From Candidatus Bathyarchaeia archaeon (lineage in GTDB: Archaea > Thermoproteota > Bathyarchaeia > Bathyarchaeales > Bathycorpusculaceae), in NCBI GenBank assembly GCA_038883775.1, contig JAVZLM010000002.1, forward strand, positions 133,587 to 197,586: a stretch of DNA of 64,000 bases. The letters run 5' to 3'. Both the position numbers and the translations under genes were made by a program. Shown in pieces: positions 3,470 to 29,764 of this stretch; position 1 is the stretch's first letter, and each line of letters starts with the position of its first letter. The notes under the pieces are model-generated. The model was given only the letters and a program-made list of their open reading frames with translations. It had not been told where the DNA came from and made no database searches.

Positions 3470-4099
3470 TCACCAAGAGCCTGGAATGTACTCTCTTAAC
3501 CTAAATTTTACTCCTAATTTTTTGGCGATTTCCTCAACCTTTGAAATTTCAACTTCTGGTATGGCTACTGCTGTGATTTCTGTTTCAAAGTTTCCCTTTG
3601 CTTTTTCCAAAAATTCTAAAATGCTTTCAAAGGCATTTTCATAAGCTGGTTTGCAAATTTGATTGTATATTTCTTTGTTGTGAGCATTCAAGCTGACGCT
3701 TATTCTGTTCACGCCAGCCTCCTTTAATTCATTAAGCAAGTCTCGTTCTTTGTTAATTAGGAAGCCTTGCCCATTAGTGTCTATTCTAATGCTAATGGGC
3801 TTACCGTAATAACGCCTTATCCATCTACAGACTTCTAAAAGGCAAGCCAATCGCTCTAAGGGTTCGCCGAAACCGCAGAAGACAATTTCGCTCCAATTTT
3901 TTAAATTTATAATGTTCTGAAGTTCGCTTATTATTTCGCTGGTTGAAGGCTCTCTTGATAGTTTGAGGTTGAAATCACCCACACCATTCTTAAAATTTCT
4001 TATGCAGAAATAGCAGTTGTTAGAGCACTTATTAGTTATGTTTAGATAGAGTTTGTTTCCAAGCCAGTAAACGGTTCTCGGAGTTTTCTGAATAGGCAT
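3470..4099 (-). CDS. Radical SAM protein, TatD-associated family
   Basis: LYLNITNKCSNNCYFCIR (CxxxCxxC), EIVFCGFGEP, IRIDTNG. Confidence 0.85.
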   Translation of the reverse strand: MPIQKTPRTVYWLGNKLYLNITNKCSNNCYFCIRNFKNGVGDFNLKLSREPSTSEIISELQNIINLKNWSEIVFCGFGEPLERLACLLEVCRWIRRYYGKPISIRIDTNGQGFLINKERDLLNELKEAGVNRISVSLNAHNKEIYNQICKPAYENAFESILEFLEKAKGNFETEITAVAIPEVEISKVEEIAKKLGVKFRLREYIPGSW

Positions 4100-4170
4100 T
4101 TTGGCTCACTTTATGAAAGGATTTAAATGCTAATTGTGGTTTTATGGTTTTGTTATTACGAGGAGAAATC

Positions 4171-5796
4171 ATGGTTAAATACATATTTGTTACGGGCGGC
4201 GTGTTAAGCTCTGTTGGCAAGGGCATTGTAACCTCTTCTATTGGCAAGATGCTTCAAGCAAGAGGCTTAAAGGTTACTGCTGTAAAAATTGACCCTTACG
4301 TGAATGTCGACGCTGGAACAATGAACCCTTACATGCACGGCGAAGTGTACGTGACAGATGATGGCGGCGAAACAGACCTTGATTTGGGTTGGTATGAGCG
4401 TTTTCTTGACTTAAACTTAAAAAAAGATAATAACATCACCACAGGCTTGGTTTATAGGGCAGTCATCGAAAAAGAGCGCCGAGGCGACTTTCTTGGAAGA
4501 TGCGTCCAAATCGTGCCCCATGTGACAAATGAGATTAAACATCGCATCCGCGCTGTGGCAAAATCCTCAAACGTTGACGTGGTTTTGACAGAAGTCGGCG
4601 GCACAGTTGGAGACATTGAGGGCTTACCCTTCCTTGAAGCTATTCGCCAAATGCGCTTAGAAGAGGGTTTCGAAAACACATTGTACGTGCACGTAGCCTT
4701 AGTTCCCATTTTGGATGTTACCAAAGAGATGAAAACCAAGCCTTTACAGCATAGCGTCAATGAGTTGAGGCGTATAGGTATTCAGCCAGACATTATTGTG
4801 GCACGCTGTTCTGAAATGATCGACGCTGAATCTTTAAGGAAAATAGCCTTGTTTGGAACGATTCCAGAAAATGCGGTCTTCTGCTCCTACAATGTAGAAT
4901 CAATTTATCAGGTTCCGTTAATTTTGGATGAGCAGGGAATGGGCAACTTCATATGCAAAAGACTTGGCTTTTCGGAAACCAAACCAGATTTTAAAAATTG
5001 GAAAGAATTCGTAGACGCCGTAACAAAGCCAAAACATGAAGTGCGAATAGCCCTTGTTGGAAAGTATGCTGGATTAGCAGACAGTTACGTAAGCATGAAT
5101 GAAGCCCTTCGCCATGGAGGCGCAGTATGCAAAACAAAAGTTTTGATAGAATACATTGAAGCTGAAAGGTTTGAAGAACACCCAGAAAAACTTGAAACTC
5201 TTAAAAGTTTTGACGGAATTTTTGTGCCTTACGGTTTTGGTCCAAGGGGCACCGAAGGAAAAATTATGGCAATAAAATTTGCAAGAGAAAACAACATTCC
5301 ATTTCTTGGAATATGCTACGGCTTTCAGTTGGCAGTTGTGGAGTTTGCAAGAAACGTCTGCGGCTTAAAAGAGGCAAACAGCACAGAAATAAACCCCAAC
5401 TCGCCCCACCCAGTAATCGACTTAATGCCAGAACAAAGAGGAATAGAAATTAAAGGGGCTACCATGCGTTTGGGCGCCCACAAAATAATTATAAAGCCAA
5501 ACACAATGGCTTATACACTTTATAAAAGTGAAGAAATTTATGAGCGCCACCGCCACAGGTTTGAGGTAAATCTTGACTATTTGGAAAAGTTTGAAAAGAA
5601 CGGCTTAGTGTTTTCTGGAAAAAGCGTGGATGCTAGAAGAATGGAAATTTTGGAATTGCCAGACCACTACTTCTTTTTCGCTTCACAATTTCACGGAGAA
5701 TTCAAAAGCCGCCCTGGAAGACCAGACCCAGAATACTATGGCTTTATAAAAGCATGCTTAGACAAAAAGTTGGGTAAGGCTAAACCAGAATTTTAG
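4171..5796 (+). CDS. pyrG: CTP synthase
   Basis: [32 protein letters not shown] nucleophile, [15 protein letters not shown]; ATG at 4171 follows GGAG SD. Confidence 0.97.
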
Positions 5797-6224
5797 TATG
5801 CACGTTTGTGAGGTCTGACGAGTTCTTCGAGTATGGATAGTAGGGTTGGCACTTTTGTTACTATGTCTGTAAAGGTTACTATTCCAACAATTTTCTCATC
5901 ACTCATAACTGGAAGCCGTTTAACCTTCTTTTTCGCCATTAGTTTGGCTGCTTCCTCTATGGTGGCTGTTTCGTTTATTGTTGTAACTGGGCTTGTCATG
6001 ATGTGTCTTGCTGTGAGCGTTTCTGGCGCAAGGCATGGTTCCACAAGCCTTCTTAGTATGTCGCGTTCTGTTATGATGCCTACTGGTCTTTCGCCCTGCA
6101 CAACTATTATGGAGCCTATGTTAAACTTGTTCATTGTGGCAACCACTTCCTTGACGGTTGTGTCTGGGCGCACAACTTTCACTTCTTTTGACATTACGTC
6201 TCTGACGAGGATTATGCTTGCCAT
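5793..6224 (-). CDS. Tandem CBS-domain protein
   Basis: VRDVMS...VGIITERDI...HIMT...KRLPV...VGIVTFTDI. Confidence 0.9.
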
Positions 6225-6339
6225 CCAATTTTACGCTCCAAGCCTTCCCTAACCATTAAAGAAGCTTTCCTTTATTTGTTTTGGTATATAGCGGATTTTC
6301 CAAAATGCATATTAGAAAACTTGAGCTTTATAAAAAAGC

Positions 6340-7125
6340 ATGAGCCAGTGGATTAAGAAGCTTTTCGTTAAAAATTCCGACCTTTTCCTAAAGTTTTTAG
6401 ATGAGAGGTGGTCTCGAACTGAGGAAGTTGTAGATGGCATGGTTAACGTGCTAAATAGTTTTGGCATCACTACGGGCAATTTGCTTGATTTGTGTTGTGG
6501 AAATGGGCGAATTTCCATATGTATAGCTAAGAGAGGATTTAGGGCTGTGGGAGTGGACATTTCTAAGGCTTTTTTGGAAGATGCAAAAAGGAAGGCTGCG
6601 GAGAATAAAGTTTCAAACATGGTGACCTTCTTAGAGGGTGATGTAAGAAAGCTTAAAGAAGTTGTTGGAAAAATTCAACAGCCCTTTGATGTTGTTGTTA
6701 ATGCTTGGACCTCGATTGGCTATTTCTCCCCAAAAGATGAGCTTAAAATTTTTAAGCAGGCAAGGGAACTTTCGAAAGAAAATGCTGTATTGCTTATAGC
6801 TGAGACCATGCATACTGAGTTTTTAGCCGTTAAATTTGCTCCCACAAGTTACGGAGAAGTGGATAATATATTGCTGTTAGAAAGCAGAAAATACGACCAA
6901 ACTACATCACAATTGAAGACGGTCTGGACCTTTTACAAAAAATGCGGAGAAAATTTAGAGTTTATTGACAGAGTGGAATATGAAATCCATGTTTACAGCC
7001 CAAGCGAACTCTCAGCACTTCTTAGAAAAGCTGGATGGGAACCCATAGCATTTTATGGAAGCTTTACAACCCTTCAGCCAATGAGCCCGCTGACAAGTTT
7101 GAATTTGGTGGCTAAGGCAAAATGA
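6340..7125 (+). CDS. Class I SAM-dependent methyltransferase
   Basis: LLDLCCGNGR motif I, GVDIS, EGDVR, FDVVVN..TSIGY. Confidence 0.88.
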   Translation: MSQWIKKLFVKNSDLFLKFLDERWSRTEEVVDGMVNVLNSFGITTGNLLDLCCGNGRISICIAKRGFRAVGVDISKAFLEDAKRKAAENKVSNMVTFLEGDVRKLKEVVGKIQQPFDVVVNAWTSIGYFSPKDELKIFKQARELSKENAVLLIAETMHTEFLAVKFAPTSYGEVDNILLLESRKYDQTTSQLKTVWTFYKKCGENLEFIDRVEYEIHVYSPSELSALLRKAGWEPIAFYGSFTTLQPMSPLTSLNLVAKAK

Positions 7126-25220: not shown

Positions 25221-25634
25221 CTAAAACACTGGTTTTTCTTCGATTCTCTTTATTAATGGACGAAGAGCTGGTTGAGGAACGTTTTCCTCTTCTAAACCGC
25301 CTTTTGGAAGCCCAGAGGTGCCAATTTTTCTGCATATGAAGTTAAGGGAATCCTCTGTGAAGTTCAGTAGACTTTGTCCTTCAGAGGTTAACTTGTAAAC
25401 TTTTCTAGGTCTTTCGCTGTTCATGTTCCATTCGCTTTTTACATATCCCTTCTTTTCTAAGGCATTTAGGAGCGGATATATTGTGCTTGGTCCAAAATAA
25501 ACCCCAAAGGTTTTGCGTACTTTGGTGATTATTTGATAGCCGTGCATTGGCTGCGTGCTTAGAAACTGGAGCACTATTAGGTCTAGGAGGCCTTTCATCA
25601 ATTTGACCTGAACTTCTTTAGAGTTGTTAACCAT
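25221..25634 (-). CDS. PadR family transcriptional regulator
   Basis: KGLLDLIVL, PMHGYQI, GPSTIYPLLNALEKKG, RKVYKLT; ATG at 25634 follows AGGAAGGAAG. Confidence 0.92.
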   Translation of the reverse strand: MVNNSKEVQVKLMKGLLDLIVLQFLSTQPMHGYQIITKVRKTFGVYFGPSTIYPLLNALEKKGYVKSEWNMNSERPRKVYKLTSEGQSLLNFTEDSLNFICRKIGTSGLPKGGLEEENVPQPALRPLIKRIEEKPVF

Positions 25635-25652
25635 TATTCTTCCTTCCTTTTT

Positions 25653-25703
25653 CACGTGTTTTTTTGTTTTACACGTGTACAATATGTCCTTTTTTGGACA
25701 TAT
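25653..25703. promoter_or_regulatory. Two inverted repeats between the divergent padR genes: CACGTGT-N11-ACACGTG (25653-25677) and ATATGTCC-T6-GGACATAT (25682-25703); putative operators
   Basis: Perfect arms read directly from the sequence; the ATGT...ACAT core resembles PadR-family sites. Confidence 0.55.
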
Positions 25704-25863
25704 CTCAAGACTTTATAGAGCCTAAACAGAAATATAAACGTTCATGCTTACCACAAACATAAAAAAGCATACAGAAGCATACAAAAATATTCCATTTTCT
25801 ACATAACTTAAATAAACTCAAACCCGAACAAGTCCAAAACAGAACACTACAGAGCGTGAAAAA

Positions 25864-26190
25864 TTGGCACAAAACTACAAAAAAGAAATTGTTCAACGCA
25901 TAACCAGAAACCTACTAGACATCCAAATACTAAGACTCCTAAACGCTGAACCCATGTGGGGCTACAAAATAAAAAAACAGGTAGAAACAAAATACGAAGT
26001 AAAACTAAGACACGGAGCCCTATACCCACTGCTGAAGACACTAGAACAAAAAGGTTTCCTTAAAAGCCAGCAACAACGCCAAGGTAGAAGAACAAGAAAA
26101 CTATATGCAATAACAGAAAAAGGAAAGGAATACATAGAAACCTATAACAGCATACTAAAAGAACAAATACAAAAACAAGACATAAAATAA
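25864..26190 (+). CDS. PadR family transcriptional regulator
   Basis: LLDIQIL, PMWGYKI, HGALYPLLKTLEQKG, RKLYAITEKG. Confidence 0.9.
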   Translation: MAQNYKKEIVQRITRNLLDIQILRLLNAEPMWGYKIKKQVETKYEVKLRHGALYPLLKTLEQKGFLKSQQQRQGRRTRKLYAITEKGKEYIETYNSILKEQIQKQDIK

Positions 26191-26194
26191 AACG

Positions 26195-27208
26195 ATGCGC
26201 ATGAAAAAGCAAGCTAACAAAAAATTGATGGAACAAGTTCAGATATTTCTAAAAAAACGTGGCCAAAAAGCATTCGAAATTGCCAAAAAAACAATTCTAC
26301 AAGAAAAAAACATGAATACAAATGTTTACAAGGCATTACGTTATTTCATGGAGGAATGTTGGTATGACGTTCAACATCCAGCTCTAATTTCTTTAACCTG
26401 TGAAGCTGTAGGCGGAAATCCTGAAAAAACAAGCGAAATAGGTGCTGCAATTGTGCTCCTCGCGGGAGCGGCAGACATTCATGATGACATCATAGACGAA
26501 TCAAAAACCAAAAACTCCAAACCCACAGTTTTCGGAAAATTCAATAAAGATATAGCACTTCTCGCGGGCGATGCCCTTTTATTTGAAGGTTTAGTTCTTT
26601 TGCATAAAGCATGTAAAAAATTTCCTGAAAAAATAGGAACGACCATTCTGAAATTAACAAAAGAAGCCTTCTTTGATTTAGGGAGAGCTACGGCCAAAGA
26701 AAGAAATTTTAAAGGAAAATATGATTTAGAACCAAAAGAATATTGCAACATTATCAAAATAAAAGCAGCCATCGCAGAAGCATGCGCGAAGATCGGAGCA
26801 GTTATAGGAGGGGGAGAATCGGAAGCGATTGACGCATTAGGTAACTATGGTAGAACTCTTGGAATTTTAATGACTTTGAGGGATGAGTTTATAGATCTAT
26901 TTGAACCCGAGGAAATAAAGAACCGCGCTAAAAATGAAATTTTACCTCTCCCCCTACTGTATGCATTACAGAATGAAACAAAAAAGAATGAAATTCTTTC
27001 TTTAATTAAGAAAAAAAGAATCACAGAGCAAAAAGCACAAGAATTAATTGATTTAGTAACGAAGGCAGATGAAGTTCAAAAATTAAAGAAAGAGATGCAA
27101 ACACTAATAAAAACGGGAGAAAAAGAAATTTTTCGAATTATAAAAAAGACAAAAAACAAAAAACTATTCAATTTACTGCTACAATCCTCAACAGAAGATT
27201 TACCGTAA
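26195..27208 (+). CDS. Polyprenyl-synthase-fold protein with degenerate acceptor site (ComQ-like prenyltransferase candidate)
   Basis: Intact first motif IHDDIID and ALLAGDALL; GKRxRP replaced by DVQHP, RRG by KNS, KT by KA, second DDxxD by RDEFID. Confidence 0.8.
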   Translation: MRMKKQANKKLMEQVQIFLKKRGQKAFEIAKKTILQEKNMNTNVYKALRYFMEECWYDVQHPALISLTCEAVGGNPEKTSEIGAAIVLLAGAADIHDDIIDESKTKNSKPTVFGKFNKDIALLAGDALLFEGLVLLHKACKKFPEKIGTTILKLTKEAFFDLGRATAKERNFKGKYDLEPKEYCNIIKIKAAIAEACAKIGAVIGGGESEAIDALGNYGRTLGILMTLRDEFIDLFEPEEIKNRAKNEILPLPLLYALQNETKKNEILSLIKKKRITEQKAQELIDLVTKADEVQKLKKEMQTLIKTGEKEIFRIIKKTKNKKLFNLLLQSSTEDLP

Positions 27209-27216
27209 AACTAGAA

Positions 27217-27267
27217 CTACCACCAGCCCGTTGGCCTGAATGGTTTAGGTCTTTTTCTCTTTTCCAT
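27217..27267 (-). CDS. Putative 16-aa precursor peptide MEKRKRPKPFRPTGWW
   Basis: Translated by hand: ATG at 27267, TAG at 27217-27219; preceded by purine-rich AAGGGGAAGGAGA and an upstream TTTTAAG TATA-like box; below the ORF-track length cut-off. Confidence 0.6.
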   Translation of the reverse strand: MEKRKRPKPFRPTGWW

Positions 27268-27286
27268 TCTCCTTCCCCTTCTGTAT

Positions 27287-27301
27287 ATATGTTCAACATA
27301 T
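27287..27301. promoter_or_regulatory. Palindrome ATATGTT-C-AACATAT between the peptide ORF TATA box and SD; putative operator
   Basis: Perfect 7-bp arms; shares ATATGT/ACATAT half-sites with the palindrome at 25682-25703. Confidence 0.5.
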
Positions 27302-27398
27302 GAGCTTAAAAGCTTTACTATTTGTACATGAAATCTTGTTTTGAAATACTAAATGCTTATTTACGAATTTAAATGAGAAATTTAAGGTAAGATGATAA

Positions 27399-28607
27399 AT
27401 GCCTAAAATAGAACTTTTAAGAGAAACGGGTCTTGTTTCAAGATCCGCATTTGCAAATATCGTATCAATATCTAACGTTTTTGTATGGTATTCGTTTGCT
27501 TTTAGCATTTTAAAGGGATTTGTATATGAATTAGCTTCAGTGATATGGGGAGTTCATTTTTTAGGAGCTGCTTTTTCAGCCATAGCGGGAGCTGCAATAA
27601 GTGACAAAATTTCTAGAAAAACACATTTTCTCTTAGTTTGGATGATGTTTGGAATTATTTCATCGTTAATTCTAATATTTGTTGACCCTGAAAATAAATT
27701 GAATGTTGTGGCGATGGCAATCCTTTTAGGAATATCATTTGGCATAGGAATCCCTACAAGTATGGGACAGCTTGCTTACTGCGCAGCCGTTGAAGATCGA
27801 GCGAAGATTGGCGGTTTAACAATCTTTGTTTATGGATTAGGAGCATTCTTCCTTGGAATAATAGCAGTTGATGACATTACCTTACAAGCCCTAACCCTTG
27901 CAATTTGGAGAGCAATCGGTTTAATAATTTTTCTTCTAGTTAACCATTCTCAAAATGTGGAGAAACGAAAAAGTGTTTCCTTTAGGTTCATATTTAATCA
28001 GCGGTCCTTTTGTTTCTACTTCATACCATGGACGATGTTTTCATTAGTTAATTATTTAGGAGGAGTGATAGCGTTTCAAATTCTAAATGAGAGTACAGTT
28101 AATTTATTTATTATTATTGAAAATGTTCTGATCGGAACCTTTGCAATTGTTGCCGGTTTTCTTGCAGATACCTTTGGTCGCAAGCGTATAACTATTATCG
28201 GATTTGTCATGTTAGGCCTTGGTTATGCCGTCTTGGGAATTTACCCTGAGAATTTGGTCGGTTGGTATTTTTACACGATAGTTGATGGTGTTGCTTGGGG
28301 CATTTTTTGGGTAATATTTATTATCACAATATGGGGTGACCTCAGTTATGGCATGTCTGAGGATAAGTACTACGCGATTGGAGGATTGCCTTTCTATATG
28401 TCAAATTTTCTACGAATTCTAATAGGTCCTTATATTGCAAAAGTTATCTCTGTGTACGCAATGTTTTCTTTTGCCGCTTTTTTCTTATTTTTAGCCGTTA
28501 TTCCACTTATGTTCGCGCCCGAGACTTTGCCTGAGAAGAAGCTTAGGGAGAGGGAGCTTAGGCAGTATGTTGAGAAGGCCAGGAAGATTAAGGAAAAGTT
28601 TACTTAG
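27399..28607 (+). CDS. MFS transporter
   Basis: About 12 TM segments; motif A copies GAAISDKISRK and GFLADTFGRKR; C-terminal PETL. Confidence 0.9.
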   Translation: MPKIELLRETGLVSRSAFANIVSISNVFVWYSFAFSILKGFVYELASVIWGVHFLGAAFSAIAGAAISDKISRKTHFLLVWMMFGIISSLILIFVDPENKLNVVAMAILLGISFGIGIPTSMGQLAYCAAVEDRAKIGGLTIFVYGLGAFFLGIIAVDDITLQALTLAIWRAIGLIIFLLVNHSQNVEKRKSVSFRFIFNQRSFCFYFIPWTMFSLVNYLGGVIAFQILNESTVNLFIIIENVLIGTFAIVAGFLADTFGRKRITIIGFVMLGLGYAVLGIYPENLVGWYFYTIVDGVAWGIFWVIFIITIWGDLSYGMSEDKYYAIGGLPFYMSNFLRILIGPYIAKVISVYAMFSFAAFFLFLAVIPLMFAPETLPEKKLRERELRQYVEKARKIKEKFT

Positions 28608-28622
28608 CGCTAAAATCTGTTT

Positions 28623-29764
28623 GTGAGTGGAGGCGCCTTCACGTTCTTCCATCTAATATTAACAAATGAGTGTAATCTTCAATGCAAATACTGTTTTGGC
28701 GAAGCCATTGAAGATTTTGACTCTTACTTTCATAATTTTGATGTCGATTATTCGTTGCCCAAACGGATGAGTTATAATGTGAAGTTGTTGGATAGGTTTT
28801 GCAGGCGAGATGCTGATTGCGTTTTGATTTTTTATGGTGGTGAGCCTTTGCTTTGTTTGGATGAGGTTAGGGGGATTATGGATTTTGTGCGGGTTAAGCA
28901 TTTTATTGTTCAAACTAATGGTTTGCTTTTGGATAGACTTGAGTCAGAATATGTTAACCGTTTCCACACAATTCTTGTTTCATAGACGGCGATGAAGCCT
29001 TAACAGACTTTTACAGGGGTAACGGCAGTTTCGGGAAGGTTGTTGAAAATTTGAGGTTGATTAGGCGTAATGGTTTTAGGGGCGAGATTATTGCGCGGAT
29101 GACTGTTATGGAGCAAACAGACATTTATAAGCAGGTTAGATGGCTTCTGGAAAACACAGAGTTTCCATTTTCTTCTATTCATTGGCAGCTTAACGCTGGA
29201 TTTTGGTCAAACGATTTTGAACGTCGCAATTTCAAAAAATGGAGCGAAGAAAGTTATAATCCCGGAATCCGCAAACTCGTAAAGTTTTGGGTTGACTACA
29301 TGGAAAAAGGCGCTGGTGCTCTTAGGCTTTATCCCTTCCTTGGAGTTGCCCAATCGCTTCTTTTAGGCGAAGAAAAAAGTCTCCTCAGATGTGGGGCTGG
29401 GTGGATTAACTATGCAATTCAAACAGATGGGCATATTATTCCTTGCCCAAGCATGTGGGGAATGAAAGACTATTATTTGGGGCATATTAAAAATGCGGAT
29501 CCACTAAAGCTTAAGAAGGTTTTTGTTGGTGAACCGTGCACGAAATGCGACATTTTGAGCCTTTGTGGTGGAAGATGCCTCTACGCTAATTTTACTAAAC
29601 GTTGGAGTTCATCAGCCTATAGATTGGTTTGTGATACCGTGAGAAATCTAATAGAAGCTGTATGCGCAGAAATACCAAGAATACAGAAACTTATTAGAGA
29701 AAAGAAAATTCGGGTGGAAGATTTCAGATTTATGAAATACAACGGCTGCGAAATAATCCCGTAG
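28623..29764 (+). pseudogene. Radical SAM/SPASM protein (archaeal AF0577-like), split by a 1-nt frameshift near 28981
   Basis: CNLQCKYC, YGGEPL, QTNG in the first frame; ILVS|IDG junction (gtttcatagac needs one more base); the second frame continues IDGDEALTDFYRG and has SPASM cysteines CGAG..PCP..CTKC....CGGRC. Confidence 0.8.

Follow-up and report, generated by a model that had tools for sequence, protein, structure and literature searches.

What does an open reading frame (ORF) of 16 codons encode, and is it a gene at all? The question is raised by a minus-strand frame in a stretch of 64,000 nucleotides from Candidatus Bathyarchaeia archaeon (GenBank assembly GCA_038883775.1, contig JAVZLM010000002.1, positions 133,587 to 197,586; hereafter the window), which lies between the gene of a divergent trans-isoprenyl-diphosphate-synthase (trans-IDS) paralog and that of a major facilitator superfamily (MFS) transporter. 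An earlier interpretation made from the DNA letters (the sequence-only reading) had placed a 16-residue peptide gene here, ending 8 nt from the stop of the prenyltransferase-like gene, and had suggested a pheromone precursor or a peptide that is ribosomally synthesized and then post-translationally modified (RiPP). Re-translation reproduced both the frame and the 8-nt separation of the two convergent stop codons. Our comparison of related loci showed that the frame is conserved and under purifying selection. A RiPP or pheromone function is suggested by its gene linkage and by the motif changes of the neighboring synthase paralog, and the reading that we favor, with about even confidence, is that of a precursor peptide that would be prenylated on its tail by this neighbor, optionally tailored by a radical SAM enzyme, and exported by the MFS transporter.

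A conserved micro-gene

When the 190-nt spacer was shuffled 5000 times by mononucleotide, 6.3% of the shuffles contained an ATG-initiated ORF that had 16 codons or more and a Shine-Dalgarno-like (SD-like) word, so the lone sequence goes only weakly beyond chance. In this respect the caution of the sequence-only reading, that so short a frame can arise by chance, was justified for the window on its own. The comparative data given below refute a chance origin, which we regard as practically nil.

In the first comparison, a DNA search of 40 relatives, the spacer was found to be conserved across genera with 72-80% identity over about 45-130 nt, and the minus strand of each conserved spacer held a short ORF, for example MQNRKRPKPIRSRGWL, MKKPIRPIRGVWW, MKKKKRPTRNLSWWG, and MAKKPVRIAGWR. 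A genome set was anchored on the radical SAM/SPASM gene that follows the transporter gene, using the best 80 of 369 relatives (79 from Bathyarchaeia/Bathyarchaeota and one labelled Baldrarchaeota). The synthase and MFS genes were located upstream of the radical SAM gene in conserved order in 68 of these 80 loci; 11 of the remaining 12 were truncated contigs, which left one locus (L050) genuinely without both genes. Together with the window and three further loci (L010, L012, and L014), the 68 loci made up a set of 72, and all 72 contained a micro-ORF of 12-21 codons at the equivalent place and in the same orientation beside the synthase stop codon, 66 placed by script and six by eye where the pick of the script had failed (L028, L034, L038, L046, L080, and L090). 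Among the 66 script-placed frames, the start codon was ATG in 58, GTG in six, and TTG in two, and the stop codon was within -27 to +50 nt of the synthase stop in 63.

A profile of six peptides, tested without the contigs of two of its seeds (L024 and L089), had its top match at the expected spot in 37 of the 66 independent loci, each of which offered about 600 six-frame segments. Moreover, a synthase-anchored scan of metagenome contigs confirmed 482 relatives, and the top 80 of them were examined. In 76 loci, 100 nt or more followed the synthase stop, and in 69 of these the profile of 70 peptides found the best match of the locus at the expected place (5.2 by chance). This result is weakened by the training of the profile on the genome set and by the possibility that some loci may share organisms; L155 and L156, for instance, have a peptide identical to that of L019.

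Selection on the frame was assessed in 17 pairs that were phylogenetically independent and matched in length (34 sequences, L034 excluded). The ratio of nonsynonymous to synonymous rates (dN/dS), a check that the sequence-only reading had itself named, was 0.26 in frame and 1.11 and 0.74 when the DNA was read in its two alternative frames, and the differences at the three codon positions numbered 65, 64, and 101. The low in-frame ratio demonstrated that the amino-acid sequence of the micro-ORF is under purifying selection. The occurrence in 72 of 72 loci, the profile tests, and the dN/dS values together showed that the ORF is not due to chance, and it is almost certainly a real gene. As far as sequence can tell, the window ORF is the founder of an unannotated family of Bathyarchaeia micro-genes. 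Four members of 20-21 residues had no match in NCBIfam and a chance-level one alone in Pfam (GAS2, E 0.1), and a collection holding 15 billion predicted proteins contained none of five members of 20-21 residues. Whatever the function, micro-ORFs well under the usual limits of gene calling are detectable by synteny.

The conserved DNA might also act in cis only, as a regulatory mini-ORF or antisense unit on the synthase gene, or be a by-product of terminator or promoter DNA. On the plus strand, a terminator-like hairpin (27233-27251) and a T-rich run (to 27262) were located inside the ORF just past the synthase stop, the 3' ends of the two genes were 0-50 nt apart or overlapping, and the intergenic DNA was conserved across genera, all of which would suit such an element. 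However, the dN/dS was reduced in frame only, which indicates selection on amino acids, the P-x-R motif described below was kept through different codons and in-frame length changes, the ORF had its own promoter boxes and SD-like stretch in each locus, and no gene lay downstream on the same strand for attenuation control. We consider a role in cis alone very improbable. An Rfam scan of 26000-29000 (E<=10) gave two sub-threshold matches, both outside of the ORF and none on it. The hairpin and T-rich run are the reverse of the Lys/Arg codons of the peptide head, and this DNA may also function as a terminator for the convergent synthase gene.

The 70 distinct peptides were 12-21 residues in length (median 16) and shared one layout, a Lys/Arg-rich head (46% Lys and 13% Arg) followed by P-[V/I]-R and a variable tail. 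With Arg as position 0 (69 of the 70 peptides), Pro was found at -2 in 58 and Val or Ile at -1 in 56; the tail comprised 3-9 residues in 69, while L034 was given no tail by the anchoring script. The basic, Pro-containing head and the aromatic end that had been read from the window peptide are thus the architecture of the whole family. Trp was present in 47 of the 70 peptides, within the final four residues in 45 and as the terminal residue in 10; it was within the final four residues in 38 of 48 metagenome readings too. The tail of the window peptide is GWW, and GW occurred in 18 of the 47 peptides containing Trp. Conservation at syntenic loci, proposed earlier as a check on start, stop, and Trp codons, held for start and stop at all 72 loci but for Trp in 47 of the 70 peptides only. 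In a quick version of the synthase paralog tree, Trp tails were basal and filled the clade of the window (26/27), while in a derived clade of 22 synthase rows Pro-containing tails followed V-P-V-R in 16 and Trp occurred in four. In one related metagenome-assembled genome (L068), the peptide gene and its promoter formed a tandem duplicate (4092-4139 and 4459-4506), identical and about 370 nt apart.

Linkage and the proposed modification

The metagenome loci distinguished constant from optional partners of the peptide gene. The MFS gene followed the synthase paralog in all 62 loci having at least 700 nt downstream, while the radical SAM gene was present in 14 of the 22 having at least 3000 nt downstream. 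Therefore, the invariant module consists of the synthase paralog, the peptide, and the MFS transporter, with the radical SAM enzyme as an accessory. The synthase paralog adjoined the peptide gene in all loci, and the peptide is very probably tied in function to the paralog and the transporter. The genome of the window contained a second complete cassette on contig C18 (L010, 1558-5105), composed of a synthase paralog, a peptide, an MFS gene, and an intact radical SAM gene; its peptide, MKKKRIKPFRWVGWL, has a tail unlike that of the window peptide. In two loci (L162 and L164), the radical SAM gene started about 2.5 kb past the start of the MFS gene and not directly behind it, maybe with an extra gene between.

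The peptide could instead be a classical radical SAM-matured RiPP, acted on primarily by the radical SAM/SPASM enzyme, with the synthase paralog and MFS transporter serving otherwise or later. The enzyme is adjacent in the window, in the paralogous locus, and in the 14 of 22 assessable metagenome modules. The intact paralog scored 318 bits in TIGR04084 (cut-off 225) and contained a CxxxCxxC motif and a SPASM region, its next-best family matches were all peptide maturases (PapB with 104 bits, then nif11, YhhB, QhpD, and DynA), and its nearest solved relatives were the thioether-forming CteB and an anaerobic sulfatase maturase. The substrate motif of anaerobic sulfatase maturases, (C/S)-x-P-x-R, also contains P-x-R. 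In addition, radical SAM enzymes cross-linking Trp to Arg or Lys are known, according to excerpts of one report (PMC11851443).

Against a primary role of this enzyme, the peptide was kept in the 8 of 22 modules without it. The peptide remained between the synthase and MFS genes in a genome with the radical SAM gene 200 kb away (G040), in one with the gene on a separate contig (G248), and in one with no TIGR04084 match at E<=1e-40 (G030), and such separated loci encoded peptides of the family type, for example MQKKLPVRLYWR. Conversely, none of seven stand-alone radical SAM loci of the same subclade encoded such a peptide, and none of 20 distant TIGR04084 loci (33-52% identity) had a synthase paralog, an MFS gene, or a credible peptide within 5 kb. 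A look-alike in one of these (L116) was rejected because it lay within a 431-residue ORF but in a different frame, and lacked an SD-like stretch. The hallmarks of a radical SAM/SPASM RiPP are constant linkage, a RiPP recognition element (RRE) domain, and a target Cys. The linkage was 14/22, no RRE domain was found in the enzyme (its alignment to CteB begins at CteB residue 103), and Cys was absent from all 70 peptides. As for the sulfatase-maturase motif, P-x-R was present, but the residue four before Arg was K in 23, E in nine, N in six, P in five, D in four, R in four, and others in the rest, with C and S outside the top six. Furthermore, the radical SAM gene of the window was frameshifted: compared with the intact paralog it lacked one C near 28981, which produced an in-frame TAG and two pieces. 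The break is either a real pseudogene or an assembly error, and coverage of 28980 came solely from contigs of relatives with 14-16 differences. A peptide made chiefly for the radical SAM enzyme is, in our judgment, improbable.

TIGR04084 itself was over the cut-off in 130 of 301 sampled Thermoproteota genomes, once in each, including Sulfolobus acidocaldarius as a control, and in none of 43, 13, and 17 genomes of three large Thermoproteota families. The accession was not found in the literature, and uses of the name AF0577 looked unrelated by title and abstract. Near the edges of the module family, the candidate peptide of one locus (L130 of G210) was ambiguous, and five more distant synthase relatives (27-38% identity) had different gene orders and no clear peptide. 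In L127 (G030; 5064-7047), two tandem synthase paralogs preceded the peptide and the MFS gene.

The changes in the synthase paralog suggested what the partner enzyme may do. The paralog was under every NCBIfam equivalog cut-off (best 126.6 bits vs 468), and among the PF00348 genes of the window genome the canonical copy scored 217 bits and the two cassette copies 106 and 95 bits. The cassette copies were aligned with the canonical synthase of the genome and the solved structures 1WY0 and 3LMD. The first aspartate-rich motif (FARM) was kept, as HDDIID in the window and with HDDI[IL]D among the variants of 69 cassette copies. GKRxRP of region I (GKRWRP in the canonical copy) read YDVQHP in the cassette synthase, RRG past the first motif read KNS, and the C-terminal Lys motif was deleted. 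The second aspartate-rich motif (SARM) was [DE]ExxD, its position reading R[DE]E[FL][IV]D. In trans-IDS enzymes, the diphosphate group of isopentenyl diphosphate is bound by the basic residues of GKRxR, RRG, and the C-terminal Lys motif, and the allylic donor by the first motif. Judged by these motifs, the paralog keeps the prenyl-donor site and has lost the isopentenyl-diphosphate-binding residues. Chain-elongating synthases of geranylgeranyl diphosphate (GGPP) or farnesyl diphosphate combine DDxxD with those basic residues, a combination that was not found in the paralog. The AF2 model of the paralog (mean predicted local distance difference test, pLDDT, 90.1) had the trans-IDS fold. The fold search gave no separation of a peptide prenyltransferase from a synthase, and the paralog seems to have branched off independently from archaeal GGPP synthase.

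The micro-protein might otherwise act on the synthase paralog or the MFS transporter as a small partner or regulator, with the paralog making a terpenoid that the transporter exports. The strict linkage of the three genes would suit this, as would the acidic residues at both motifs of the paralog, which may still use small isoprenoid substrates, and the fact that Trp is not universal in the peptides. On the other hand, the sequence and length of the tail (3-9 residues) varied widely and one locus carried the tandem duplicate of the peptide gene, which is more in keeping with a diversifying product than with a fixed binding partner. In addition, the peptide was strongly basic and had no membrane-spanning stretch, unlike small proteins that modulate transporters, and the loss of the isopentenyl-diphosphate-binding residues runs counter to ordinary chain elongation. 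A partner or regulator of this kind seems unlikely, less so than the substrate of a classical radical SAM maturase.

For the reading that we favor, a prenylated and exported peptide, we infer prenyl transfer, the acceptor residue, cleavage, export, the biological role, and regulation. The paralog, derived from GGPP synthase, would bind an allylic prenyl diphosphate via its intact first aspartate-rich motif and would no longer bind isopentenyl diphosphate. The prenyl group would be passed to the peptide tail, most likely onto Trp where present. In about two thirds of the modules, the adjacent radical SAM/SPASM enzyme would add a further modification. The head would perhaps be removed after the invariant Arg, and the MFS transporter would export the lipopeptide, which might have a signaling or, as a cationic peptide, a membrane-active role outside the cell.

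Several observations weigh against this mechanism. Because 23 of the 70 peptides were without Trp, Trp is not a universal acceptor. No protease, receptor kinase, or RRE domain was found in the module by profile scans. The closest match of the paralog by sequence and fold was the archaeal GGPP synthase 1WY0 (E 1.7e-23, template modeling (TM) score 0.81), while the indole prenyltransferase Ord1 was only fifth in the fold match (TM 0.70), and the paralog may have residual chain-elongating or terpene-synthase activity. Its second motif, [DE]ExxD, is nearer to the canonical DDxxD than to the NDxxx of ComQ, and an invariant Arg (R229 in alignment A2) takes the place of the conserved Gln of the Trp-modifying enzymes, as far as the excerpts of the reports cited below describe these two features. 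In addition, the T-rich run opposite the Lys-rich head could terminate the synthase gene and may partly shape the composition of the head.

Expression signals and flanking genes

The sequence-only reading had listed a TATA-like box with a transcription factor B recognition element (BRE), a palindrome, and a leader ahead of the start codon. All three, the leader as an SD-like stretch, were read directly in the DNA (Table 1), and the layout recurred in related loci.

Table 1. Positions in the window of the peptide gene, its upstream signals, and the flanking genes
Feature	Position	Strand	Basis or remark
Micro-peptide gene, 16 codons + TAG, MEKRKRPKPFRPTGWW	27217..27267	-	direct translation
Shine-Dalgarno-like purine stretch AAGGGGAAGGAGA, abuts ATG	27268..27280	-	read from DNA
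ATATACAG element, likely transcription start region	27281..27288	-	read from DNA
Palindrome ATATGTT-N-AACATAT, 7-nt arms + one central base; putative, likely operator	27287..27301	.	read from DNA
BRE/TATA-like promoter box AAAGCTTTTAAG	27305..27316	-	read from DNA
Second, weaker TGTACA box, upstream of TATA-like box	27321..27330	.	read from DNA
Divergent trans-isoprenyl-diphosphate-synthase paralog, 337 aa, convergent with peptide gene; proposed peptide prenyltransferase	26195..27208	+	PF00348, 94.8 bits
MFS transporter, 402 aa, divergent from peptide gene; proposed exporter	27399..28607	+	PF07690
Radical SAM/SPASM gene, TIGR04084 subclade, split; proposed optional tailoring enzyme	28623..29764	+	two pieces, different frames
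Two divergent PadR-family regulator genes, upstream of synthase paralog	25221..26190	.	profile matches

Sixty-two upstream regions were aligned after omission of the six loci placed by eye, of L024 and L089 (each a duplicate of a seed locus), and of L066 and L079, which are nearly identical. An SD-like word was present at -18 to -5 in all 62; in the window, 27 of the 51 long ORFs had such a word ahead of them, compared with a background frequency of 0.12 at randomly chosen positions. TACA[GC] was found 15-28 nt ahead of the start codon in 45 of the 62 regions, and the probable start-site role of the ATATACAG element follows from its distance to the TATA-like box. In related loci, a TATA-like word (loose pattern) was concentrated 42-48 nt ahead of the start codon, and the promoter elements recurred in the order of BRE/TATA-like box, TGT-N3-ACA box, and ATAC(A/T). 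The core TGT-N3-ACA box of the palindrome is flanked by the TATA-like box and the start region; variants of it, including TGTTCAACA, TGTAGAACA, TGTTCTACA, and similar ones, held the equivalent position in related upstream regions, and in many related loci a further TGTTCAACA box was found on the upstream side of the TATA-like box. The TGT-N3-ACA motif occurred four times in the window vs 0.66 expected, the other two sites being 2115 and 42867, the latter within a coding region. The TGT-N3-ACA boxes around the TATA-like box would form a repressor site.

The GC content of the ORF was 0.471, compared with 0.267 in the remaining intergenic DNA, 0.28 in the final 150 nt of the synthase gene, and 0.404 in the whole window, which agrees with the higher GC of the ORF noted earlier. 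The similarity that had been claimed between the leader and that of padR1 was compatible with the translation K-K-E-G-R-I-M ahead of the likely padR1 start. Contigs of two other hot-spring studies reproduced the DNA at 27216-27815 with one difference and at 26957-27371 with none, and the stretch occurs in hot-spring metagenome runs.

Of 68 related loci, 28 had a PadR gene no more than 2.6 kb upstream, which makes it a common but not invariable neighbor. The upstream region of padR1 contained the palindrome ATGTCC-N6-GGACAT (about 25684-25701). ATGT/ACAT half-sites have been reported for PadR operators; this palindrome resembles them, and it may be an autoregulatory site. Other neighbors near the module were an amidohydrolase and an ABC transporter.

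Comparison with known systems

The published comparisons used here were available as excerpts, and the statements below on PMC13290415, PMC5331326, PMC4008528, PMC10853753, and one preprint extend as far as those excerpts do. All characterized trans-IDS-like peptide prenyltransferases target Trp (PMC13290415), and the known ones are bacterial (PMC13290415; PMC4008528). ComQ, the P domain of ChrPC, PalQ, and Ord1 all act on Trp and carry a Gln immediately before the second motif (PMC13290415). The second motif of the ComQ type is NDxxx (preprint 10.64898/2026.08.29.745113; PMC5331326), and DDxx(D) at this position is described as unsuitable for Trp prenylation in a review of ComX (PMC5331326). 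For ComQ, Trp must stand at position 2-4 from the C-terminus, and a basic peptide of 11 residues is accepted (PMC5331326). In a census of 2014, com loci were found in Firmicutes only (PMC4008528). PalQ prenylates the C-terminal Trp of a ribosomal peptide, a reaction favored by a preceding Gly (PMC10853753; PMC13290415).

ComQ/ComX of Bacillus and the homologous StheQ/StheX of Sphaerobacter are like the Bathyarchaeia module in having a polymorphic tail and, for those Bathyarchaeia peptides that contain it, Trp near the C-terminus. However, the ComX precursor has 53-73 residues, compared with 12-21 here, and the com genes are co-directional rather than convergent. The ComQ/ComX system has a kinase and regulator of the ComP/ComA type, in place of which the Bathyarchaeia module has an MFS gene, an optional radical SAM gene, and PadR genes; no partner kinase or regulator of the ComP/ComA or PalP type was present among the module neighbors. 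The NDxxx motif and the upstream Gln are both absent in the Bathyarchaeia paralog, the host is archaeal and not bacterial, and the Trp that marks ComX is missing from the 23 peptides mentioned above.

PalQ/PalX of Paenibacillus alvei shares an enzyme of the isoprenoid-synthase superfamily and, with part of the Bathyarchaeia peptides, a terminal Trp (10 of 70) or a Gly ahead of Trp (18 of the 47 with Trp). The long NHLP leader of PalX and the histidine kinase of its cluster have no counterpart in the Bathyarchaeia module. PalQ is remotely related to trans-IDS enzymes, whereas the Bathyarchaeia enzyme is a clear member of PF00348, and the Trp of PalX is at the very end, whereas most Bathyarchaeia tails run one to three residues past it. 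Ord1 (PDB 9V4G-9V4J) has the same fold as the paralog, with a sequence match of E about 2e-13, but it acts on free tryptophan (PMC13290415), and its Gln-centered network was not kept in the paralog.

Outside the enzymes of prenyl transfer, two further systems were compared. The optional neighbor of the module, comparable to radical SAM/SPASM peptide maturases, is a member of the uncharacterized TIGR04084 (AF0577) family, which outside the Bathyarchaeia subclade had no such peptide, synthase, or MFS gene nearby (the 20 distant loci). Indolicidin and tritrpticin are short cationic Trp/Arg-rich host-defense peptides of eukaryotes that are cut from larger precursors; they resemble the Bathyarchaeia peptides in length, in being strongly cationic, and in having a hydrophobic end rich in Trp.

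Bathyarchaeia are mainly uncultured and are abundant in sediments and hot springs. Literature searches on archaeal and Bathyarchaeia RiPPs, prenylated peptides, and ComQ homologues yielded no ribosomal prenylated archaeal peptide and no such module, and a secreted lipid-tagged peptide of this kind has most likely not yet been described in archaea. If the favored reading of a prenylated, exported peptide is true, a widespread module around a gene missed by annotation would offer a handle on the interactions of Bathyarchaeia with their neighbors. Its product would be a cell-to-cell signal or a cationic lipopeptide weapon, and the diversifying tails, together with the two different cassettes of one genome, would be an archaeal equivalent of pherotypes. 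The paralog would be a second case in which a chain-elongating synthase independently gave rise to a peptide-modifying enzyme, and it would provide a thermostable enzyme with a minimal substrate of 12-21 residues for peptide lipidation.

Since the peptide side fits for the most part and the diagnostic residues of the enzyme do not, the module would work like the ComQ and PalQ systems and is not a member of their families. We tentatively propose, as a possibility held with less confidence than the modification itself, that Bathyarchaeia secrete prenylated micro-peptides encoded by genes of 12-21 codons as an independently evolved counterpart of ComQ/ComX and PalQ/PalX, with an enzyme that would have been recruited from their own GGPP synthase through loss of the isopentenyl-diphosphate site.

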